DNA of 64,000 nt from IMG/VR virus record IMGVR_UViG_3300010340_001122. One strand, 5' to 3'. Position 1 is the stretch's first letter. Each line of letters starts with the position of its first letter. The DNA is from a virus (lineage: Duplodnaviria; Caudoviricetes). The translations under genes and the position numbers were made by a program. Shown one piece after another: positions 11,262 through 64,000 of the stretch. The notes under the pieces were generated by a model. That model searched no databases, was not told where the DNA came from, and was given only the letters and a program-made list of their open reading frames with translations.

Positions 11262-11291
11262 AAAAAAACCCACTCAAATGAGTGGGTTTTT
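11262..11291. terminator. Bidirectional intrinsic terminator
   Basis: aaaacccactc-aaat-gagtgggtttt, same core as 43146-43172. Confidence 0.85.
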
Positions 11292-14372: not shown

Positions 14373-15557
14373 ATGGATAAAGTTTATATACAAAGTATTA
14401 TTCAAAATATATTAGATAAAGAGTTCTCATCACCGATATTTAGAAAAGTAAATACATATGAGGATCGTATAAATATGCGATGCCCATATTGTAAAGAAGG
14501 TCGATCTCAACATAAAAAGAGAGGTAATCTATATTTTAATAAATTATTATTCATCTGTTTTAGATGTGATAAGAAAACTTCTTTTGATAAAATGTCTCGT
14601 GATTTTAATGAGGCTATTGATCCTCAGAAAAAGCTTGAACTAATTGAATATCTAGACTCGGTTGTTGATTATTCAGATTATGATACAGACTTTAATGATT
14701 TTAAAGTCGATGACTTAATCGATATGAAAGACTTAGAAGAATTATTCAATGTTAAAAAGACTACACCTATATTTGATTTTGCACCAGTGAGTGAAAAGAG
14801 TGGAGTTTTTAAATATTTAATAGGAAGGGGAATTCCCAAAGAATTACATAAGAATATTTATCAAGCTAAATTTGCAAAAGGCGATGAGGGATTTGAACAT
14901 GTTATTATATTCTTAAATAGAAGAGGTGATAAAGTGCTAGGTCTTCAAGTTCGTAATCTAAAAGAAGGTCGTAGAAGATTTTTTGTTATTTATAATTGGG
15001 AATCTATCTATAAGTGGATTCATGGTGATGATGTTGAATTAGATATTCAAAAATCGGTTATCTATAACAAACTATCATATTTCTTTAATATATTGAATAT
15101 TGATTTTGAAAATACGATAACTGTTTTTGAGGGGTATTTAGACTCAATATTTTATCCAAACTCTATTGGAATAGTTGGAGTAAATACTGATTTAAGATTC
15201 CTTGAAAATAATAATTTAGAGTTACAATATTTTTTTGATAATGATGATGCTGGTTTTAATAAGTCTGAGGAAAAAATAAAAGAAGGTGGTAAAGTCTTTT
15301 TATGGAAAAAGTTATTTGAAGATATTGTTTCTAAAAAGAAAAGTGGGGATCCACATGAGTTACTTTATCGAATTTCAAAAGTTAAAGATTTAAATAAATT
15401 AAATGAATTGGTTCCAGGTGCTTTTAAAAAATTAAATATTTATAATTTTTTTTCAGAGGATTTATATGATTTGAAATATTTACCTAAAAAATTAAACAAA
15501 AGAAAAACTAAACCTGAAAAAGATTATTTAAAAGAATTTAAAAATCACGACTTTTAA
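14373..15557 (+). CDS. DNA primase (T4 gp61-like)
   Basis: Zn finger CPYC...CFRC; TOPRIM VFEGYLDS and FFDNDDAG; KDLN. Confidence 0.9.
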   Translation: MDKVYIQSIIQNILDKEFSSPIFRKVNTYEDRINMRCPYCKEGRSQHKKRGNLYFNKLLFICFRCDKKTSFDKMSRDFNEAIDPQKKLELIEYLDSVVDYSDYDTDFNDFKVDDLIDMKDLEELFNVKKTTPIFDFAPVSEKSGVFKYLIGRGIPKELHKNIYQAKFAKGDEGFEHVIIFLNRRGDKVLGLQVRNLKEGRRRFFVIYNWESIYKWIHGDDVELDIQKSVIYNKLSYFFNILNIDFENTITVFEGYLDSIFYPNSIGIVGVNTDLRFLENNNLELQYFFDNDDAGFNKSEEKIKEGGKVFLWKKLFEDIVSKKKSGDPHELLYRISKVKDLNKLNELVPGAFKKLNIYNFFSEDLYDLKYLPKKLNKRKTKPEKDYLKEFKNHDF

Positions 15558-16027
15558 ATATACGGTACTCTAGTATTTTTATATTTTATATTTTTGATTC
15601 TTAAATAATCTTTAAACTTTAAATCTCCTCTTTCGTTATTACAATCAAAACACACAACAACTAAATTAATTTGACAATTATTACCACCCTTTGATATTGG
15701 TATAATATGATCAGTTGTTGCATTAGATTCTGTTAGATATTTTTCACAATAGATACATTTGGCTTTATCATTATCCTTTAAATATTCTTTAGCAAAACCA
15801 CTTGTTCTCCTTTTAACATTTTTACCATTCCATTTAAGACCAACGACAACAATATTTTCAAGAAATTTATACTTTTTTCTATAAATTACACAAGGAACAT
15901 AATTCTTATTTAATCTAACAAATAATCTTATTACTATTGACCATTTTTCCCAAATTTCTTTATCTACCGATATAAAATGGTGGTCTTTTGACTTTCTAAT
16001 AAACTTGACAACTTCTATAATATTCAT
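15554..16027 (-). CDS. HNH endonuclease
   Basis: CIYC...TTDHIIPISKGG...NLVVVCFDCNNERG. Confidence 0.85.
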   Translation of the reverse strand: MNIIEVVKFIRKSKDHHFISVDKEIWEKWSIVIRLFVRLNKNYVPCVIYRKKYKFLENIVVVGLKWNGKNVKRRTSGFAKEYLKDNDKAKCIYCEKYLTESNATTDHIIPISKGGNNCQINLVVVCFDCNNERGDLKFKDYLRIKNIKYKNTRVPYI

Positions 16028-17704: not shown

Positions 17705-19167
17705 TTAAAATCCGTTGAATATGTCTAAAATAACACTCAATCTTTTAGTTATTTCTGGCATTCCAAGTGGAGTAATAATTGAGTTAATAGGACTTATAAT
17801 TGTTTTGAAAAATTGTAAATCATAATCAACTTCAGGTGCGAATTCAATAGGATATGATCCTCTAATAAATGCAAATATTTCATTTATTTTTTTATTATTA
17901 CAGTGATAATACTTAATTTTTGTTCCGGATTTAATAAATTCATACTTTGATTGTAATTCTTTATTTTGATTTAAAAGAAAATTATAGTAAGCTGCTGATT
18001 TAACCGCAAAGTGAGCACCAGATACAAAACTTAATCTATCTTTATCTTCTAAAACCTTTGTTTCATAGTTAGAGCAAGATGATTGCATTGATATATCATC
18101 AATATCAGCTAATTCAAATTCTTTTCTTAAATTCTTAACCAATTTAAGTAAGTCTTTAATATTAAAATTATCTGGATGTTCAAATAAATATTTAACAATC
18201 TGTATAATTTTCTCTCTTGCAAAAAGTGGTGTTGATGATCTAACAAGTTCAACTCCTTTAGGGAAAATATATGTCAATCTATCGAAGGGAATACCATCTT
18301 CATAAACAATATTTTGTATATATTTCTTTTTAGAAAAATTCAGAATAGATTCAGAAATTCTCTCCAATTCAAAATCCTCTCGATTTTTAACCCCGAAACT
18401 CTCAGCATACTCTTCAAGACAGTTTTTAAAGTATCCACCAAATCTAAATCCATCAATTCCATGAATAAAATCTAATTCATTAAACCAATTCCATCTTATT
18501 ACATTATTTTTTAATAAATCTTGCAATTCAGGAGAATTAAATGATCTATCTTTAACAAAATAACCATCAATAATTAAATGATCTACTTTGTTATTTTTCA
18601 AAAAATCTTTTAATTCATCCGGTTTTTTAAAAATACCTAAACAGTTAATATTGTCGGTTTTGGTTTCTTGTCTATACTCTAATATTACAAATGTTGTATC
18701 TACTTTATCTATATTTTTTAAGAATAGATTTTGCCATTCACAATGTTGAATTGCAGGTTCAAATGATACAAATAATGAATCAGTATCTGCATAAATACTT
18801 ACTTCTTCTCCATTCTTTTTAATAATTGGAGTAACATTTTTCACACCTAATCTGGCATGTAATTCATAATCTATGTGCCAATGAGAATACCAGTATTTCT
18901 CATTTACTGCATGCATAGTTTTTGTTAAATCACGACCCTGTGCAGTAATTGTACCAGCAACGTGTTGGTTAAATAGTATGAAATATTGCGTCGCAAATGC
19001 ACCATACGAACCATTTAATATAAGTTTTAGTCAATACCCCCTCAAATAAATTGAGGGGGTCAAAAAAGAGCGAGCTGTAAGGCATTGTAGTAATCACTTT
19101 CCCTTTTCAACTCGCTGGCTTTATTTTTTAATGACTCAATTTTTTTGAGTTTATCTTCTTTAGTCAA
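17705..19167 (-). CDS. Family B DNA polymerase, C-terminal subunit (gp43B-like), interrupted by a 38-nt non-coding insert
   Basis: Segment 1 is 19167-19069 (TTG; MTKEDKLKKIESLKNKASELKRESDYYNALQLA). Segment 2 is 19030-17705 (LKLILNGSYG...ITAQGR...YADTDS...SKKKY...KGVELVRSSTP). Joined product is 474 aa; the ORF track start at 18916 omits motif B. Confidence 0.85.
19031..19068 (-). other. 38-nt coding gap with in-frame TGA and 10-bp hairpin (candidate translational bypass element)
   Basis: Minus strand: GCT[CTT TTT TGA ccccctcaa tttat ttgagggggt attga]CTA AAA CTT; hairpin at 19036-19060. Confidence 0.75.
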
Positions 19168-19206
19168 TTTTTTAATTATTTTTTAAATATATCCTTAAAG
19201 GAACAT

Positions 19207-20388
19207 ATGTTAATTTTATATATAATAAAATTAATTAGTTTTTATATGATAAAAGAAAAAAATGTTTTAGTCTCCGTAAATTCAAGAAACATATCACACT
19301 ATAAGTTATTGGGTTATGATATACATATTGGTGGGTTTTCAGATAAAAAACTATTAGAAGTAATTATTAAAGACATTCCAAAAAATTCAACGGTTAGAAT
19401 AACTGCTATTTGTGACTTGTGTAGTTGTGAAAAGTCTATTACACTAGCAAAATATTATAAAAATTTTGAAAGAGGTGGTTATAATTTTTATTCTTGTTTT
19501 GGTTGTAAAAATAAAAAGAAAGAAATGACTAATCTAAAATTGTTTGGTGTAAAGTCTTTTTCCGAAACTGATGTCTTTAAGGAAAAATATAACAAAACTT
19601 GTTTAGAAAAATATGGAGTTAAAAATCCAAATATGTTAAAAGATTTTAGAGAAAAAACTAAAAAAACTTGCTTGGAAAAGTATGGATTTACAAATCCATT
19701 AATGAGACCAGAAATTATAGATTCAAATAGGATATGGATGTCTTCTGATGAATTTAAAAATAAATCCAAATTAACGTTAATAAAAAACTGGGGATTTGAT
19801 TCATACTCAAAAACTGATGAATTTAAAAATAAAATTCAAGAGAATAAAGAAATGATTATTAGTAAAATAAAATCTTCGTTTTTAGAAAAATACGGAGTTG
19901 ATTCTATTTTTAAAACTAAAGATTGGAAAATTAACTTTATGAATAAAATAGATGAAATCCAAAAGAAGAAAAAGGATACTTGTTTAGAAAAATATGGATT
20001 TGAAAATGTTTCTCAAGTCTCTGAAATATATGACAGAATAATTAAAACTAAGATATATAATAATCAAATTATACCTGATTCATTATTATCAGATTGGAAA
20101 ATATATAAAAGAAAAGTTAGGAAAATAACAAACAAGAATAAAAAAACTCTTTATGAAAATTGGAACGGTAATGATTATTATGATGATGAAGTTATAAAGT
20201 CCTATCTTGCATACTCACACACACATAGGTTTTACCCTTGTATAGACCACAAGATTAGTGTTTTTTATGGATTTAATAATAACATAGATCCAGAAATAAT
20301 AGGAGATATTGATAATTTATGTATAACTAAAAGATTTTTGAACTCCATAAAAGGTAGTTTAATTGAAGAGGAGTTTCGAAAATTTTAA
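19207..20388 (+). mobile_element. Free-standing HNH homing endonuclease with (T)CLEKYG repeats
   Basis: CDLC...CFGC, several KTCLEKYG(V/F) repeats, C-terminal IDHKIS...NLCIT...NSIKG; likely start ATG 19246; inserted antisense between clamp and polB. Confidence 0.75.
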
Positions 20389-20389
20389 A

Positions 20390-21172
20390 TTAATCCTCTT
20401 CGTTTGTAAAATCTTGTTCAAAACTAATCATTAAGTGACTTGTTTCATCTTTTGTTAAAATGAATGTATCAAAAACATAAAATTCAATTTTATCAGAATT
20501 ATCATTTATAGATGGGAGAAATGTTTTATTAAACATTAAATGTCTGTCTGTTAAATCCACTTCATCTACTTGAAATTCCCAAGTGGATAATTCAGATAAA
20601 ACAACTTTTTTATCTTCAACATTTAAATGTATTACTTTACCATCTGAATTAATTGATGATAACTTCTTAATATCTTGAAATTCTGATTTATCAATTTTAA
20701 AAGACCATTTACTATTTTTAATATCAACTCTTTTTGATAGAACTCCTTTTGGAATATCTCTAATTTCAGAAGATTCGCCTCCTTGAAGGCCAATTTTTAA
20801 CTTACCATTTTTAATTTGTGTAAAACGAACTATTGAAGAATCATCATCATCATTTTCACGATAATCAATATTCATTACGATTTTATCAGATGATGTTTTA
20901 ATAAATCCAAGATTTTTAACAAATCTTTTAGCACCAGAAATGATCATATCGAGTGTATTTTCTAATTCATCTTTCATTTCAAAATAGTCTTTAGTATCTA
21001 TTAGATAACTTTTAAATGCTAAAAGTATTGTTTCTCCAACAATAGAATACATTAGAATATTTTCCGAATCTATTTTTAATTTAATTGTATCACTTATTTT
21101 AGATAAGTCCTCTAACTTTGTTAGAAAGTCCTCGAATTTATCACGATTTAATTGTATAGTGAGTTTTGACAT
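20390..21172 (-). CDS. Probable sliding clamp (gp45/PCNA-like)
   Basis: 260 aa, two-domain beta/alpha pattern, upstream of polB on the same strand. Confidence 0.55.
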   Translation of the reverse strand: MSKLTIQLNRDKFEDFLTKLEDLSKISDTIKLKIDSENILMYSIVGETILLAFKSYLIDTKDYFEMKDELENTLDMIISGAKRFVKNLGFIKTSSDKIVMNIDYRENDDDDSSIVRFTQIKNGKLKIGLQGGESSEIRDIPKGVLSKRVDIKNSKWSFKIDKSEFQDIKKLSSINSDGKVIHLNVEDKKVVLSELSTWEFQVDEVDLTDRHLMFNKTFLPSINDNSDKIEFYVFDTFILTKDETSHLMISFEQDFTNEED

Positions 21173-22073: not shown

Positions 22074-22786
22074 TCATCTAAAAGTTCATCTAGTCTTTGA
22101 CCTCTATTTGGCATTATATTAGGTGATGTTGCTAATACATATCCATCTGAAAATTCTAATACTTGTGAATTAATATTATTATTAACTTTTAAAAGCTTAT
22201 AAAGAATCAACTCCTCACTGAAGTCATATATTCTTTTATATGAAAAATAGTTTTCTGTGTTTTCCCTAATAAATTCTAAAGATTCTATAAAATAATCAGA
22301 TTTATCATGTTTCAATGAAACAATAGATCCTATTTTATTTTTTATACTACATATCTCATTTCCATTCTCATCGAATCCATAAAAATCCCCTATTATTTTT
22401 ATAACATCTTTAATGGTTTGTATGTAAAGAATGCAAGGAATTGCTGGTAATTGTGAAAAGTTATAAGTATATTTTACAAAATCAACATTATAGGATCTAT
22501 GTTCTTGGATATCTTCTATTTCTTTAAAATAATTTAAATTTTCTTGACTAATCGAGCATTTTATAACCTCATGTCCAAGTAGAGATGAAAAGAATTCTAT
22601 TTTAAATTCTTCTTTAAGAAATCGATGTACAAGTTTTTCAAATCTATCAATATTATTTTTTGATATAGAAAAAGAAAAACGATAATCGATTTTTCTATTA
22701 TATACCTCTTTTATTTCCAAATAATGCAAACCACCAGATATCTTCTTAGACCATTCCTCAATTTCTATTTTTGATAAAATTCTCAT
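22070..22786 (-). CDS. Hypothetical protein with RGQRLDELL tail
   Basis: 238-aa ORF, last gene of the NAD operon. Confidence 0.65.
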   Translation of the reverse strand: MRILSKIEIEEWSKKISGGLHYLEIKEVYNRKIDYRFSFSISKNNIDRFEKLVHRFLKEEFKIEFFSSLLGHEVIKCSISQENLNYFKEIEDIQEHRSYNVDFVKYTYNFSQLPAIPCILYIQTIKDVIKIIGDFYGFDENGNEICSIKNKIGSIVSLKHDKSDYFIESLEFIRENTENYFSYKRIYDFSEELILYKLLKVNNNINSQVLEFSDGYVLATSPNIMPNRGQRLDELLDD

Positions 22787-23469
22787 ACTAATTCCACAAC
22801 TTTAATAGGAACTTCCGCTCTTTCTCTAATTTCCTCAAATGTCCATTCTTTTAAAATTCGACCATTTTCAAAAATTTTTACTAAAATATCATCACTAAAC
22901 TCGTTACAATGTTCAACAGTTTCATATTCATCACTATTATTATATCTATCAATATGATGTAAAAGTTTTAATCTACCAGCTTTTGATTTTTTAAAAGACT
23001 GAACTCTCTCACCATATTCATTAATTTCAATTGGATTTTTCTGAACTTCTACTTCTTCACCATTGATAACAATTGATGAACATTTGATAGCAAATTTCTG
23101 AGTATCTCTATCAACTTTTTGTAAAAGAGCACCACCCATACCAAATGCAATATTCTCTACTGCGAATCCTTCTTCAACCATCATATCTAAAATATCAATA
23201 ATAGACTCATAATTAACGCCATCACCCTGAATTACTCTAACATGTGGATCAATAACTTTAAATCCTTTTTTATTAATTGTTCCTCCGAATTTTTCCCAAA
23301 GAATATGAAAGATTTGCTTTAATGTTTGAATTGGATCACCACTATCCGGACGAATTACAAGACGACCATCTCTATTTAGAATTTTATCTCTCAAAGTAGT
23401 GCCCCAATAATCTCTACAAGCACGGATAATATCAAATGAGTCTGATAGTAATAGAATATTAGGTTCCAT
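22783..23469 (-). pseudogene. nadV: Nicotinamide phosphoribosyltransferase, C-terminal half only
   Basis: SDSFD, VIRPDSGDP, VIQGDGV, FGMGGALLQKVDRDT, KKSKAGRL present; N-terminal half absent. Confidence 0.8.
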
Positions 23470-23470
23470 A

Positions 23471-24592
23471 TTATGAATTTATTTTGTCAAAGTAATTTTT
23501 GAATATCTCATGTGGCACTGATACAGATATTCTTGAGTATTGTGTATTTACTGTTCTGTTAAGTGAAAACTTAAGTAAAGGTACGGATGATATTCGATTA
23601 AATAAAAGAATATCAAAATTTATATTAATTATAGCGAATGGTCCGGTTGGAATCGATGGATATTCATCAAATAAGAATCCTCTATCTTTAAGATATTGAA
23701 TATTCTTCTTTATACTATCCTGTGTTTTTATTTTATAGTTCTCTAAAGCTGCATTACCATTATTTGTTGTAAGAAGTTTCGTTATTACTTGTTGTGGAAT
23801 TGTTGAAATAGAATTATACTTATATAAGGAACGAATTTTCATTGAATTATATAATTCTTGATTTTTTGTTGCAATATATCCAATTCTAAGTCCTGATAAT
23901 CCCATTGATTTAGAAAATGATGATATAACAATTACATTATCATAGAATAACTCATGAATTGGATTATCAATATCATTGAATAAATAATAATATGGTAAGT
24001 CTAGAATAACTGTAATATTATGTTCTTTTGAATGATCTAAAAACGCCTTTAAATCTTCAAAATTAGGTGACCATCCTGTAGGATTTGAAGGGTAACACAA
24101 CATTACAACTTCCGATTCTTTTTCAAATGGTAGGATGTTAAAGTAATTTGTAAATGGGTCACAAACTTTAAAATTTCTAATATTAAAATCATCAAATTCC
24201 TTAATTTTTTTATTATGAATTTTAAGAATTTTATTCCAAGAACCCCAATGATATTTAGGAACCCAAAAATTTTCTTCATCTAATGAATTTATAACCAAAT
24301 CAAGTGTTGCCATTCCACCAGGAACAGTCATTACATAATGATCCTTTAAATGAAATTTGTTTTTAATAACATCAATTAAAACCGAATCGCCATCATTACC
24401 ACCATATTGTTGAACAGATTTTTGATTATAGTCAAAATCTCTCATGAATGAATTTAAGTCGATCATATCGACATCCATAACACCTCGATGTAGTTTTAAA
24501 TATGTTTCACCAGTTGCCTTTTCTAACTGTGAAGTTCTTTCACCTATCTCTACGATTGATGAATATGTTACGGGTGAGTGATTTATTTTCAT
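23471..24592 (-). CDS. PLP-dependent class I/II aminotransferase
   Basis: PSNPTG, ILDLPY, SFSKSMGLSGLRIGY (PLP lysine), terminal RIS. Confidence 0.9.
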   Translation of the reverse strand: MKINHSPVTYSSIVEIGERTSQLEKATGETYLKLHRGVMDVDMIDLNSFMRDFDYNQKSVQQYGGNDGDSVLIDVIKNKFHLKDHYVMTVPGGMATLDLVINSLDEENFWVPKYHWGSWNKILKIHNKKIKEFDDFNIRNFKVCDPFTNYFNILPFEKESEVVMLCYPSNPTGWSPNFEDLKAFLDHSKEHNITVILDLPYYYLFNDIDNPIHELFYDNVIVISSFSKSMGLSGLRIGYIATKNQELYNSMKIRSLYKYNSISTIPQQVITKLLTTNNGNAALENYKIKTQDSIKKNIQYLKDRGFLFDEYPSIPTGPFAIININFDILLFNRISSVPLLKFSLNRTVNTQYSRISVSVPHEIFKNYFDKINS

Positions 24593-25515
24593 ATATTTTT
24601 TAAAAACATTTTTAATAGTGGTTTATGTTCATCAACGATTGGTCCAATTACATTATCATAAATATCAATCCAAGATTGTGATATTTCATGTATATCCCAC
24701 CATTTCAGTTCAGATACATCATCTGAGGGTTCGATAATACCACCGATATATTTGGTTTTGTAGAAATTACTAATAATTTTATCTTCCTCTCCACGATATC
24801 TCCAATCTGGAACTAGTGTGCTACCAATATATTTTAGTTCAGATATTTCTAAACCATTACCAGCATCTTGAGAAATTTTCCTTTTTGCAGTTGATTCAAA
24901 TGAATCATCGGTTGGATGAGCGAATCCGCCAATGAATCTCCAACCATTTTCATAAGGTTTTTTTGCTAAAAGAATCTTATCATCATCATTCATAATAGCG
25001 ACATCTACACAAGGATGTACTTTTGGATATTGATTATATGCATTATAAATAACACCTGCTCTAAAATCTGGTGAGTTTTTGACTGTTTCAGATACTATTT
25101 TTCTAACCTCTGTTCCTGATACAAATGTATATTGGTCTAATTCTCTACAATCGAATTGCCCTTTACCTCTTTTATAATATGGTATGAATGAATCTCTACC
25201 CCCATAAAGAACCACATCACCTATTGGATAAACCTCTCTGATTCTTCTATCTAATTCTGATGTCCATTTAACATCATCTCCAAAATCGGGAAGTGCAAGA
25301 ATAACTGAATCTGGATAGGATGCTTGAATCATCTTTTTCCTAGAATCAAAATCTAAAGGATTCTTTTTAGTACCAACTACTTTAGGTACTCCTAAAAATA
25401 TAATTGATTTTTTATGATTATTAACGACTTGATCGATGATATATCGATGAGCATCGTGTAGATCATGAACTTGGAATCTACCAACTACCGATCCTATTGA
25501 ATATTCTTTATCCAT
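24589..25515 (-). CDS. Bifunctional NMN adenylyltransferase / Nudix (NadM-Nudix, NatV-like)
   Basis: VGRFQ...HDAH, KNPLDF, SGTEVR; C-terminal Nudix fold with degenerate Nudix box. Confidence 0.9.
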   Translation of the reverse strand: MDKEYSIGSVVGRFQVHDLHDAHRYIIDQVVNNHKKSIIFLGVPKVVGTKKNPLDFDSRKKMIQASYPDSVILALPDFGDDVKWTSELDRRIREVYPIGDVVLYGGRDSFIPYYKRGKGQFDCRELDQYTFVSGTEVRKIVSETVKNSPDFRAGVIYNAYNQYPKVHPCVDVAIMNDDDKILLAKKPYENGWRFIGGFAHPTDDSFESTAKRKISQDAGNGLEISELKYIGSTLVPDWRYRGEEDKIISNFYKTKYIGGIIEPSDDVSELKWWDIHEISQSWIDIYDNVIGPIVDEHKPLLKMFLKNI

Positions 25516-27430: not shown

Positions 27431-27461
27431 AAAAAAACCACTCATTTTGAGTGGTTTTTTT
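27431..27461. terminator. Bidirectional intrinsic terminator
   Basis: aaaaaaaccactca-tt-ttgagtggtttttt. Confidence 0.85.
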
Positions 27462-28611
27462 ATTTTAAAATATTTACTACTTCTGGATACCAATGACATT
27501 TTGTATCATCTTTATCATCATAATTTATTTTATCCAAAACATATCTCATTGCATTTAATCTTCCTATTTTTTTATCATTAGAATTTATTATTACCCAAGG
27601 AGACATTCTTGTTGATGTTTTATTAAACATCTGATTTTTATATTTAGTTATTATATCCCATTTATCAACAACTTTTGCATCGTTTGGTGAAAATTTCCAA
27701 TATTTAAGAGGAGATTGTTTTCTTAATTCAAATCTTAATTGTTGTTTTTCTTTAGTTATAGAAAACCAAAATTTAATTAAAATTAATCCTTTTTTTATTA
27801 AAGATTCTTCCCAATTTCCAACATTTTCTATAAAATCCATATATTGATCCTCTGTACAATATCCCATAGCTGGCTCAACGACTCCTCTATTATACCAAGA
27901 TCTATCAAAGAAAACAATTTCTCCATTATTTGGTAGATGTTTTTCATATCTTCCAAACCAATTATTTTTCTCTTCTTCTGTTGGTACTCCAAGAGCAACA
28001 ACTCTGAAGTATTTAGGATTTAAATATTCAATAAATCTTTTAATAGTTGAACCTTTACCAGCTGAATCTCTTCCTTCAAAAACAATAGCAACTCTCTGAT
28101 TTGTTCTAATAACCCATTCTTGTAATTTCATCAATTCAACCTGAATATCATATTTCTCATCTTCATATTTTCTACGAGTTATTAATGAGTGTTCTCCTTC
28201 GACTTTATCAAAATGATCTTCTTCTTTAGAATCTTGAGATTCCTCTTCAAATCTATTTTCTAGAGAAGAATAATAATTTAAAAACTCTTCTTTAATTTTC
28301 TTTTTAGTATTTCTTTTTTTTAAATCTAAAATTTGATTGATTTTTCTTAAAAAAGACACAATATTGAATTGTTCTACAATATCCTTTCCTAAATCCGAGT
28401 TTAATTGTGATATAATTTGAGGTATATTAATATTTGTAAAATCTTTATATTCAATTTTATTAGTTTTAAGATTATATTCAATATTGTGTAATATTGAATA
28501 TTTATATTGATCTAAATTAGTAATGATATTTATTAATAATTTATTAAAACTACTATCACTCATTTTACTAATATTTAATTCTTCTTTTATATGTTTTATA
28601 TAGTGTAACAT
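27460..28611 (-). CDS. ppk2: Polyphosphate kinase 2 with about 140-aa N-terminal extension
   Basis: FEGRDSAGKG Walker A, FDRSWYNR, WKFSPND, PWVII. Confidence 0.92.
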   Translation of the reverse strand: MLHYIKHIKEELNISKMSDSSFNKLLINIITNLDQYKYSILHNIEYNLKTNKIEYKDFTNINIPQIISQLNSDLGKDIVEQFNIVSFLRKINQILDLKKRNTKKKIKEEFLNYYSSLENRFEEESQDSKEEDHFDKVEGEHSLITRRKYEDEKYDIQVELMKLQEWVIRTNQRVAIVFEGRDSAGKGSTIKRFIEYLNPKYFRVVALGVPTEEEKNNWFGRYEKHLPNNGEIVFFDRSWYNRGVVEPAMGYCTEDQYMDFIENVGNWEESLIKKGLILIKFWFSITKEKQQLRFELRKQSPLKYWKFSPNDAKVVDKWDIITKYKNQMFNKTSTRMSPWVIINSNDKKIGRLNAMRYVLDKINYDDKDDTKCHWYPEVVNILK

Positions 28612-43145: not shown

Positions 43146-43172
43146 AAACCCACTCAAATGAGTGGGTTTTTT
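43146..43172. terminator. Bidirectional intrinsic terminator
   Basis: aaaacccactc-aaat-gagtgggtttttt. Confidence 0.85.
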
Positions 43173-62402: not shown

Positions 62403-64000
62403 ATGGATTTAGATATATTTAGAAAAAACGATCCTTCTGGTAAATTAAATAAGGAATCTTACCTTTTCAAAAATCATACTGAAGAGTATAATTATATTAT
62501 TGATTATTGTAGGAAAAATGAAATATTTGATATTTCTTTCAAGGAAAAAGTTTATCTGTGTCTAAATAATATATCTAAAGTGCCTATCTGTAAAAATCCA
62601 AATTGCAATAAAAAAGTAAATTTTATAAATTCGACTTTGGGTTTCAGAGAATATTGTTCTAATAAATGTATATCATCTGATCCAGATATCAAAAAAATTA
62701 AAGAGATGAAATCTTTAGAAAAGTTTGGAACAAAAACTCCAGCTGAATCGAAATTAATAAAAGACAAAATAATTCAAACTAACCAATTAAAATATGGAGG
62801 TAATTCCCCTATGTCTTCGGAAAAGATTCAAGAAAAATCAAAAGAAACATTAATAGAGAATTGGGGAGTTGATAATCCTGCTAAATCAAGTAAAATTTTA
62901 GATAGAAGAATTGAGTCTTTCAAAAAAAGCAATTATAAAGAATCATATAGAAAAACTTCTATTGAAAAATATGGTGTTGATCATCCGTGGATGAATGAGG
63001 AAGTTCATAAAAAAACGATAGATTTCTTCTATAAGAGTTATAAGGAAAGAATTGAAAGTAAGATAAATCATGACCAATTTTTTTTTAAAGGATTTAAAAA
63101 AGATCTTTCAACCAATTTACAATTTCATTGCAATGAGTGTGGTGAAGATTTTGATATTTTAACCTGGCAATTTTATTACAGAAACAATTCAGGTAGAAGT
63201 ATCTGTACAAATTGTTTTCCAATTTCAGAAAATGCTTCTATTTCGCAATTAGAAGTTTTAAGATTTATTGAATCAAATTATAATGGTGAAATCATTTCAG
63301 ATTGTAAAGGTATTATAAACCCTTATGAAATAGATATTTATTTACCTGAACTTAAATTAGGATTTGAGTTTAATGGTGTTTGGTGGCATTCCGAGAAATT
63401 TAAAGGTGATAGTTATCATCAGAAAAAACATAAATTTGCGGAAGATAATAATATAAATTTATTTTCGATTTGGGAAGATGATTGGAATAGTAAAAGAGAA
63501 ATCTGTCAATCATTTATACTTAATAAACTAGGTAAAACTCAAAATAAAATCTGGGCTAGAAAATGCCAAATCGAAAATGTTTCTTATAATGATTCAAGAG
63601 ATTTTTTAATAAAAAATCACCTTCAGGGAGATTGTAAATCTTCGATTAGAATTGGTTTATATTTCAATAATGATTTAGTAAGTCTAATGACATTTTCTAA
63701 ATTAAGATTACCATTACAAAGACTAAAATCAAATCGTAAAGAAAATTACTATGAATTGACTAGATTTTGTAATAAAATAAATACTAATGTTGTTGGAGGA
63801 GCATCAAAAATATTGAAATATTTTATTCAAAATCATTCACCTATATCAATAGAAACTTATTCTGATAATTCAATTTCAAATGGTGGTCTTTATCAAACTT
63901 TAGAATTTACTTATCAACATACTTCAAAACCAGGATATTGGTATGTGATAGATGGTATAAGAAGTCATAGATTTAATTGGAGAAAACAAAAACTCCTTAA
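62403..64000 (+). mobile_element. Free-standing putative homing endonuclease (Zn fingers, KYG repeats, PD-(D/E)XK-like domain), runs off the window end
   Basis: Hand-translated from ATG 62403: CKNPNC...YCSNKC, KFG/KYG/NWG repeats, YEIDIYLPELKLGFEFNGVWWH, IWEDDW, YELTRFC. Confidence 0.75.

Follow-up and report, generated by a model that had tools for sequence, protein, structure and literature searches.

A candidate bypass and homing-endonuclease cassette in motif B of a split phage DNA polymerase gene

Introduction

Phage T4 gene 60 is reportedly interrupted by a 50-nucleotide (nt) gap in its coding sequence that is accompanied by the gene for MobA, a homing endonuclease of the HNH type. To our knowledge, long-gap programmed ribosomal bypass has been proven in bacteria and phages only for this gene and its homologues. 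Short hairpin inserts rich in G and C that ribosomes skip, called byps, are also said to occur in the mitochondria of Magnusiomyces capitatus. This report concerns a 38-nt gap in the coding sequence for motif B of a family B DNA polymerase (PolB) gene, and the free-standing nuclease gene beside it, in a 64,000-nt stretch of phage DNA (record IMGVR_UViG_3300010340_001122; hereafter the window, to the whole of which all coordinates refer). Comparison with related loci makes it very probable that nuclease and gap are one mobile unit aimed at motif-B DNA. Taken as a whole, the reading of this locus as a two-part selfish cassette, with homing, immunity through the gap and ribosomal bypass, is given a probability of about 0.6; the cut site, the immunity and the bypass are the parts of it that we infer.

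The analogy with T4 gene 60 and mobA is supported by comparison. In both systems a free-standing nuclease gene of the HNH or HNH-like type stands at the start of a split replication gene, and a gap of a few dozen nt falls in the DNA for invariant residues (at codon 34 here and 46 in T4). One transfer RNA (tRNA) would read both the take-off and the landing codon, a stop codon follows soon after take-off, a stable stem-loop carries UUCG or GNRA loops, and the AU-rich 3' part of the gap is free of early landing triplets. Homologues of gene 60 likewise include cases in which the nuclease has been lost and the gap kept, and cases in which the nuclease has been replaced by one of the GIY-YIG or VSR type.

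Other described systems share some of these elements. In gene 43 of Aeromonas phage 25, a seg endonuclease gene is found between 43A and 43B, and 43B contains a group I intron (Petrov, Ratnayaka and Karam 2010, via PMC2988022). A candidate bypass at a rare UUA codon has been described in the terminase gene of Streptomyces phage Hau3 (PMC10732093); the same paper mentions DNA polymerase once, in a reference on Escherichia coli dnaX frameshifting, and HNH not at all. Manning and Atkins (10.1101/2022.08.31.505936) found cassettes only in topoisomerase genes, called them unique and never mention polymerase. A literature search returned no published account of a gap in PolB motif B.

A coding gap in motif B

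Sequence and profile alignments identify the product of the interrupted gene as a split PolB's C-terminal subunit, which starts in the fingers, because ungapped homologues (473-477 amino acids (aa), including P0007 and P0031) run uninterrupted from their start into motif B, and the family profile aligns to motif B of Sulfolobus PolB1 (1S5J) with no gap. The peptide at the start is common to the ungapped homologues, whose start codon is ATG, GTG or TTG. In the window the gene is divided into two segments (Table 1). The frame that opens at TTG 19167 comprises 35 codons and is closed by a TGA within the gap. The frame of motif B is closed by TGA 19033-19031, opens at the adjoining CTA and extends to a stop at 17705; its first canonical start, ATG 18916, lies far inside. 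The open reading frame (ORF) from this ATG (17705-18916, minus strand) matches PF00136, phrog_262 (positions 564-839) and phrog_1918, and motif C (YADTDS, 18776-18793, minus strand) is part of segment 2. Gene callers shorten these polymerase genes to 403-440 aa instead of 474 aa, and the window copy to 403 aa.

Taking out the 38 nt joins QLAL to KLILNGSYG and gives 34 + 440 = 474 codons, the length of P0007 and P0031. The first-pass annotation of this DNA had placed a 38-nt insert in motif B of polB; it lies where it was placed, and its exact removal restores both the motif and the full gene length. The borders of the gap are ambiguous, with 19031-19068 equivalent to 19028-19065 through a repeated "CT". 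Most of the gap is a hairpin rich in G and C whose stability was matched by 0 of 200 shuffles, and no other hairpin of this kind occurs inside any gene of the window. Rfam has no match for the gap, and this, with a length of 38 nt and stop codons inside, speaks against a group I or group II intron or an intein. No terminator-like site was found at the gap on either strand, and the hairpin was rejected as a terminator, with a T-run before it and an A-rich run after it, the reverse of the true terminators of this phage.

Two independent public assemblies keep the gap without insertion or deletion, and it is therefore not an assembly artefact. One of these assemblies differs by seven substitutions. 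Five of them fall in the stretch from the gap to the first ATG, and each is a synonymous change at a third codon position. This stretch, which lacks its own start codon, is therefore translated.

Gap variants in related phages

The gene was compared at 90 related loci, 10 from IMG/VR and 80 from metagenomes. About half of these are ungapped; the remainder carry 36-48 extra nt, and two loci have two gaps. The 35 distinct gap sequences (36-48 nt) fall into all three frame classes and occupy four sites within about 30 nt: after an Ala codon, after a Leu codon (the site used in the window), after a Val codon, and between the Tyr and Gly codons of motif B. Exact removal of the gap produces a perfect 11-residue motif at 41 of 41 single-gap loci and at both double-gap loci. 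Simple frameshifting is ruled out by gap lengths in all three frame classes and by the stops that the gaps hold. Ungapped alleles are also present in the public giant-phage genomes LR756502, LR745206 and LR756504.

In all 35 variants the proposed take-off codon is followed, at once or closely, by a stable stem-loop. The stems are 10-16 base pairs (bp) long, with predicted energies of -17 to -31 kcal/mol, and their sequence varies while pairing is kept. Loops are often GAAA (10 variants), UUCG (3), GUAA or GCAA. The stem begins 0-6 nt past the preceding codon in every variant and is followed by an AU-rich spacer of 5-9 nt. Gapped alleles contain no other lesions. Codon differences within the 27 codons preceding the gap are synonymous in a fraction of 0.50 among gapped alleles and 0.57 among ungapped ones, a similar level of constraint, and codon comparison points to purifying selection on both sides of the gap.

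Sequence signs of ribosomal bypass

The last triplet of the gap shares its first two letters with the codon before the gap in 30 of the 35 variants. At the Leu site the pair is CTT and CTA in 12 of 13 variants, at the Ala site GCY and GCT or GCA in four of five, and at the Val site GTT and GTA in both; at the Tyr site TAY is followed by TAC in seven of 16 variants and by TAA or TAG in five more. The final triplet is thus identical to the preceding codon or a wobble variant of it. The take-off codon is usually the weaker, wobble-pairing NNU codon, and the landing triplet usually ends in A or C and is the Watson-Crick codon of the one tRNA. Early cognate triplets are depleted in the 3' spacers, with none observed against 5.9 expected (P about 0.001). 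In the window, too, one peptidyl-tRNA could read both codons (CTT and CTA), and removal of what lies between restores the protein. Homologues of gene 60 show the same take-off and landing pattern (Manning and Atkins, bioRxiv 10.1101/2022.08.31.505936). These patterns are predicted by re-pairing of a peptidyl-tRNA and not by splicing. On the sequence comparisons, hopping of ribosomes over the gap is the most likely account of how it is tolerated.

A run of G residues is found 5-9 nt ahead of the landing codon. It forms an arm of the hairpin itself, and its candidacy as a Shine-Dalgarno (SD) anchor was downgraded, the genes of this phage being without SD motifs: only one of 49 window genes has an SD-like motif within 20 nt upstream of its start, and leaders are about 90% A+T. 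Together these figures suggest SD-independent initiation in the phage, as in Bacteroidota, and the lack of SD motifs would suit a host of the Bacteroidota type.

The nuclease gene and its association with the gap

The intact nuclease ORF encodes a protein with four invariant Cys residues in a zinc-ribbon-like arrangement, the "KYG" repeats of DUF7487 and a C-terminal "IDHK...N...N" motif. Residues D347, H348, N358, N370 and N379 are invariant, and the nuclease domain occupies residues 335-385 approximately. Sequence searches gave no solved homologue and no NCBIfam match for the protein. Its structure model has a predicted local distance difference test (pLDDT) score of 86, and the best local fold matches are HNH domains (8f43, probability 0.98, and 4h9d, 0.80), both weak, with E above 0.1. 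Phage ORFs that carry the annotation HNH or homing endonuclease share 40% identity with the domain. On these grounds the protein is best called HNH-like rather than a proven HNH enzyme.

The first-pass annotation had also described the nuclease gene as antisense between the clamp gene and polB and less than 200 bp from the insert. From its ATG it is 142 bp to the gap and 39 nt to the polymerase start, and the clamp is now identified by its fold. Among close relatives the nuclease gene has a patchy distribution, with 16 changes on the tree, and it is always antisense, 40-60 nt before the polymerase start. In relatives that lack it, the clamp stop is followed by the polymerase start after only 11-35 nt. 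Homologues elsewhere include one in LR756501 that is not beside a polymerase gene and a small stand-alone ORF between tail genes in Salmonella phage S16.

Association was counted at the 60 related loci with at least 1.2 kilobases (kb) of upstream DNA. A nuclease gene of this family stands antisense just ahead of the polymerase start at 23 gapped loci, is missing from 10 gapped loci and is found at none of the 27 ungapped loci (Fisher p = 4e-9), so that an intact nuclease and an uninterrupted target never occur together at these loci. Among phylogenetically independent pairs, about six of seven agree with this and none contradicts it (median sign-test p 0.03). Co-occurrence across relatives had been set beforehand as a test of the cassette idea, and the counts fall as it predicted.

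Nuclease type also follows the site of the gap. The nucleases that accompany Tyr-site gaps, 11 in all, fall into a single clade (277-287 aa, support 99), and those beside the three upstream gap sites belong to another (332-393 aa). A target in motif-B DNA fits this correspondence. Gap state itself has changed at least 27 times on a polymerase tree of 83 sequences. The nearest relative of the window (L011; 93% aa identity, identical clamp tail) combines a nuclease of the other clade with a gap at the Tyr site. Between positions -72 and +18 relative to its own gap, the window agrees with L031, a distant allele that has the same gap, at 87 of 90 positions (97%), and with L011 at 56 of 90 (62%); further downstream, in the rest of the gene, the relation is reversed and the window is closer to L011 than to L031. 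The resulting mosaic of about 100 nt around the gap looks like a co-conversion tract.

The decay series expected of a homing cycle is present among the relatives. Besides gaps without a nuclease, it includes two gapped loci with replacements, a GIY-YIG gene in the nuclease's place (L043) and a DUF7487 protein with a VSR-like end (L090), and an ungapped locus (L085) with an internally deleted nuclease remnant of 186 aa that lacks the catalytic core.

Proposed mechanism

In a mixed infection, the nuclease would cut or nick the motif-B DNA of gap-free phages, and repair would transfer the nuclease gene to the recipient together with the gap and the 34 codons that precede it. The carrier would be spared, the gap breaking up the recognition sequence. 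During translation, a ribosome with peptidyl-tRNA(Leu) on CUU would meet a very stable hairpin starting 5 nt further on, release CUU, pass 35 nt and allow the same tRNA to re-pair with CUA, so that reading would resume at AAA. The stop two codons after take-off would end the products of ribosomes that do not hop. A hop across the gap is predicted to yield the tryptic junction peptide ESDYYNALQLALK.

Several observations weigh against this account. The ten gapped loci without a nuclease are explained by loss, but independence of gap and nuclease would explain them too, and the 35 variants are in many cases homologous to each other, such that counts of them overstate independent events. A sense codon follows take-off in the window (UUU) and in 26 of the 35 variants, with the stop as the second codon; a stop directly after the take-off codon is seen only in L040. 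In five of the 35 the final triplet (AAA, AAC twice, AGC and TCT) is a poor match for the take-off tRNA, and one variant changes TTG to ATG. The G-rich arm cannot be assumed to act like the mini-SD of gene 60. The structure model of the nuclease matches known folds weakly, with a best E of 0.03 and probabilities of 0.8-0.98 for HNH domains, and the Pfam HNH models do not match the nuclease domain even at E up to 10. Finally, a search for RNA datasets containing the stretch listed none, and two metatranscriptome runs from a study that includes its DNA gave no usable coverage, which is compatible with possible removal of the gap from the messenger RNA (mRNA).

Alternative explanations

Removal from the mRNA is the main rival for how the gap is tolerated, although it is considered unlikely. 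The gap would then be a micro-intron: a host or phage endoribonuclease would cut the hairpin out, the ends would be ligated, and the cassette would home in the same way with no ribosomal hop. Such excision would account for a removal that is exact and independent of frame, for gaps that are nearly all hairpin, for stems that start right at the exon border in several variants (L030, L043, L058 and L075), and for the five variants with poorly matching end triplets. It does not predict the two-letter agreement in 30 of 35 variants or the depletion of early cognate triplets; moreover, 36-48 nt is far below the size of any self-splicing intron, there is no Rfam match, and the boundaries share no conserved motif. 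We know of no bacterial or phage mRNA splicing pathway of this kind. A different and improbable account would make gap and nuclease independent elements at one hotspot, the hairpins being mobile palindromes and the nuclease targeting something else, such as the clamp-polymerase spacer. The gapped loci without a nuclease suit it, as do the resemblance of the gap stems to the phage's own terminator hairpins at 11269 and 43149, the motif-C inteins gathered by the same gene, and endonucleases of other types near the ungapped alleles L053 and L054. Yet no intact nuclease of the family lies beside any of the ungapped alleles counted, the nuclease clades track the gap site, and no comparable hairpin is found inside the other genes of the window.

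Two further accounts dispense with continuous reading across the gap. The gene might be in three pieces, the 35-residue peptide ending at the TGA, the rest being started afresh near the resume site, and the parts assembling without a peptide bond. A split at the finger tip already exists in the polymerase, which functions as subunits in relatives, and the first gap of L090 has an ATG exactly at the resume position. The resume codons CTA, GCN, GTA and TAC are nevertheless not start codons, an in-frame stop often directly precedes them, and the helix bearing the catalytic lysine would be interrupted midway, so this arrangement has very little probability. Least credible of all is a dead gene or an assembly error. 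The 403 aa reported by gene callers would agree with this account; against it stand a gap shared by two independent assemblies, 35 variants free of other lesions, purifying selection on both sides, and the presence of no other C-subunit gene among those seen in the window.

Comparison with known systems

The locus departs from T4 gene 60 and mobA in several respects. The host sequence here is PolB motif B, whereas in T4 it is the Toprim domain of a topoisomerase, and the split of the gene predates the cassette. Gaps occur at four codons here and at one or two there. One sense codon separates take-off from the stop, in contrast to gene 60, in which the stop is adjacent, and the hairpin fills most of the gap, with no SD use evident in the phage. 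The nuclease differs from MobA in being antisense, in carrying DUF7487 repeats and in having a C-terminal nuclease domain; in the T4 Mob proteins this domain is N-terminal (PMC2988022). Orthology with MobA is not supported, given the C-terminal domain, the PolB host gene and the lack of any T4 mob gene among the tblastn matches listed. An independent origin from the T4 cassette is plausible, because the nuclease domain lies at the opposite end of the protein and the host gene and gap sequences are unrelated. That these loci form a second, independently evolved family of phage bypass elements, driven by a hairpin without SD pairing at four codons (Ala, Leu, Val and Tyr), with at least 35 variants, matching endonuclease clades and probably ribosomes of the Bacteroidota type, is an evenly balanced proposition.

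The mitochondrial byps (described, it is said, in 2014 and 2015 by the groups of Lang and Nosek) resemble these gaps in being numerous, mobile 27-55 nt hairpin inserts rich in G and C within AT-rich coding DNA, with no need of SD pairing, and in having take-off and landing codons that match or differ by wobble, apart from some larger deviations. Byps, however, are scattered through many genes and come without a nuclease gene, whereas the polymerase gaps are confined to about 30 nt of a single gene and are linked to a homing endonuclease. Aeromonas phage 25 also has a split T4-type PolB with a free-standing endonuclease gene before 43B, and there a separate insert in 43B interrupts the target of the nuclease, which mobilises it ("collaborative homing"). 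Its elements are a group I intron and a GIY-YIG enzyme, whereas the insert here is 38 nt long and has no intron features. The Hau3 case is likewise a candidate programmed bypass in a phage gene outside T4, but it is driven by a rare codon, concerns a different gene and involves no homing endonuclease.

The split polymerase and other elements at the locus

The halves of the polymerase are far apart in LR756502, unlike 43A and 43B, which are neighbours in Aeromonas phages. The N-terminal subunit, a 515-aa ORF, contains motif A as well as the exonuclease motifs and is separated from the C-subunit gene by about 133 kb (in LR756502.1, a complete genome of 642 kb, the N-part is at 254330-254689 (L101:1015-2559) and the C-part at 120495-121808). 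No N-terminal subunit was found in the window by motif scans, by PHROGs, Pfam and PDB searches of the large unknown ORFs or with the LR756502 ORF as a homologue, and none was found in the IMG/VR relatives by PF03104 and phrog_262 searches.

The polymerase C-subunit gene is a hotspot for three kinds of selfish insert. In several relatives (L006:5100-6910, L007:5115-6925, L008 and L010:4902-6827), motif C of the same gene contains an intein of about 170 aa that follows YxD and ends in HN, after which TDS resumes. Many relatives have a full homologue of initiation factor 3 (IF-3; PF05198 and PF00707) between the clamp and polymerase genes, among them L034 (3348-3872), L037, L048, L053, L054 and L058; the window has no IF-3 homologue at this position. 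In the ungapped relatives L053 (2122-2946) and L054 (171-917), a different Cys-rich ORF with an HNH-like C-terminus and no Pfam match adjoins the clamp gene. In L085 (791-2594 and 3272-3832) the clamp-polymerase spacer holds, besides the nuclease remnant, ORFs of 431 and 194 aa that resemble an IS607-type pair; Pfam is blank for the 431-aa ORF.

Table 1. Position of the gap, the polymerase segments and the neighbouring genes in the window
Feature	Coordinates	Strand	Content or evidence
PolB C-subunit (43B-like), segment 1	19066..19167	-	TTG start 19167-19165 to codon 34, CTT 19068-19066 (proposed take-off)
Coding gap, 38 nt	19028..19065	-	TTT, TGA 19062-19060, hairpin, AU-rich spacer 19031-19035, CTA 19030-19028 (proposed landing)
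GC-rich hairpin, 10 bp, 5-nt loop	19036..19060	-	-19 kcal/mol, z = -4.25
PolB C-subunit, segment 2	17705..19027	-	Motif-B lysine AAA, motif B, motif C, thumb, stop
Divergent spacer, polymerase start to nuclease start, 39 nt	19168..19206	.	Position
Free-standing homing-endonuclease gene, 393 aa	19207..20388	+	DUF7487, PHROG homing-endonuclease families; 15 homologues in same position and orientation in related phages
Sliding-clamp gene, left border of nuclease insertion	20390..21172	-	Foldseek E about 1e-11 to PCNA and beta clamps; synteny in relatives

Genomic context

The window is AT-rich (about 27% G+C) and includes T4-like replication and structural genes for UvsX, a helicase, the large terminase, a baseplate hub and a sheath. 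Deposited phages gave no near match to it. Its PolB C-subunit is 66-68% identical to the counterparts in LR745206 and LR756502, which are uncultured phages of 634-642 kb. Phage genomes of that size are its closest public relatives, and the window is read as part of a giant uncultured phage. Near-identical DNA is present in metagenomes from activated sludge, wastewater, a digester and water (several studies). No phage tRNA genes were found in the window.

Two identical 18-nt hairpins with flanking A-runs and T-runs (11269-11286 and 43149-43166) lie between convergent genes as bidirectional terminators. Their stems resemble the polymerase gap stem, and they are a possible source of the gap hairpins. 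A small second HNH protein of 157 aa (15554-16027, minus strand; PF14279, PF01844) abuts a primase-like gene (14373-15557); it is kept at the same place in most relatives and thus looks core rather than mobile. A large homing-endonuclease gene (62403-63998, plus strand; phrog_3339, E 2e-105; phrog_559) follows a 1402-aa sheath-like gene and runs off the end of the window. With 27460-28611 and 22783-25515 (both minus strand) the phage has genes for a polyphosphate kinase 2 (PF03976, E 1e-78), for a short protein of the nicotinate phosphoribosyltransferase (NAPRTase) family and for an aminotransferase, as well as a gene that matches cytidylyltransferase-like and Nudix families; they make up a set for nucleotide or nicotinamide adenine dinucleotide (NAD) salvage.

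Implications

Gaps of this kind are missed in metagenome annotation, because gene callers truncate the polymerase genes that carry them. An unrelated family in another essential gene would make available dozens of natural sequence variants, four take-off codons and a different layout, with a hairpin-filled gap, a sense codon before the stop and no SD use; taken together, these would test which features of bypass are required. If the cassette reading is true, it would show how the most conserved DNA of a genome can be occupied by homing endonucleases while the gene survives, and ribosomal bypass would be a device that selfish nucleases use repeatedly to protect their carriers in essential genes rather than a peculiarity of T4.

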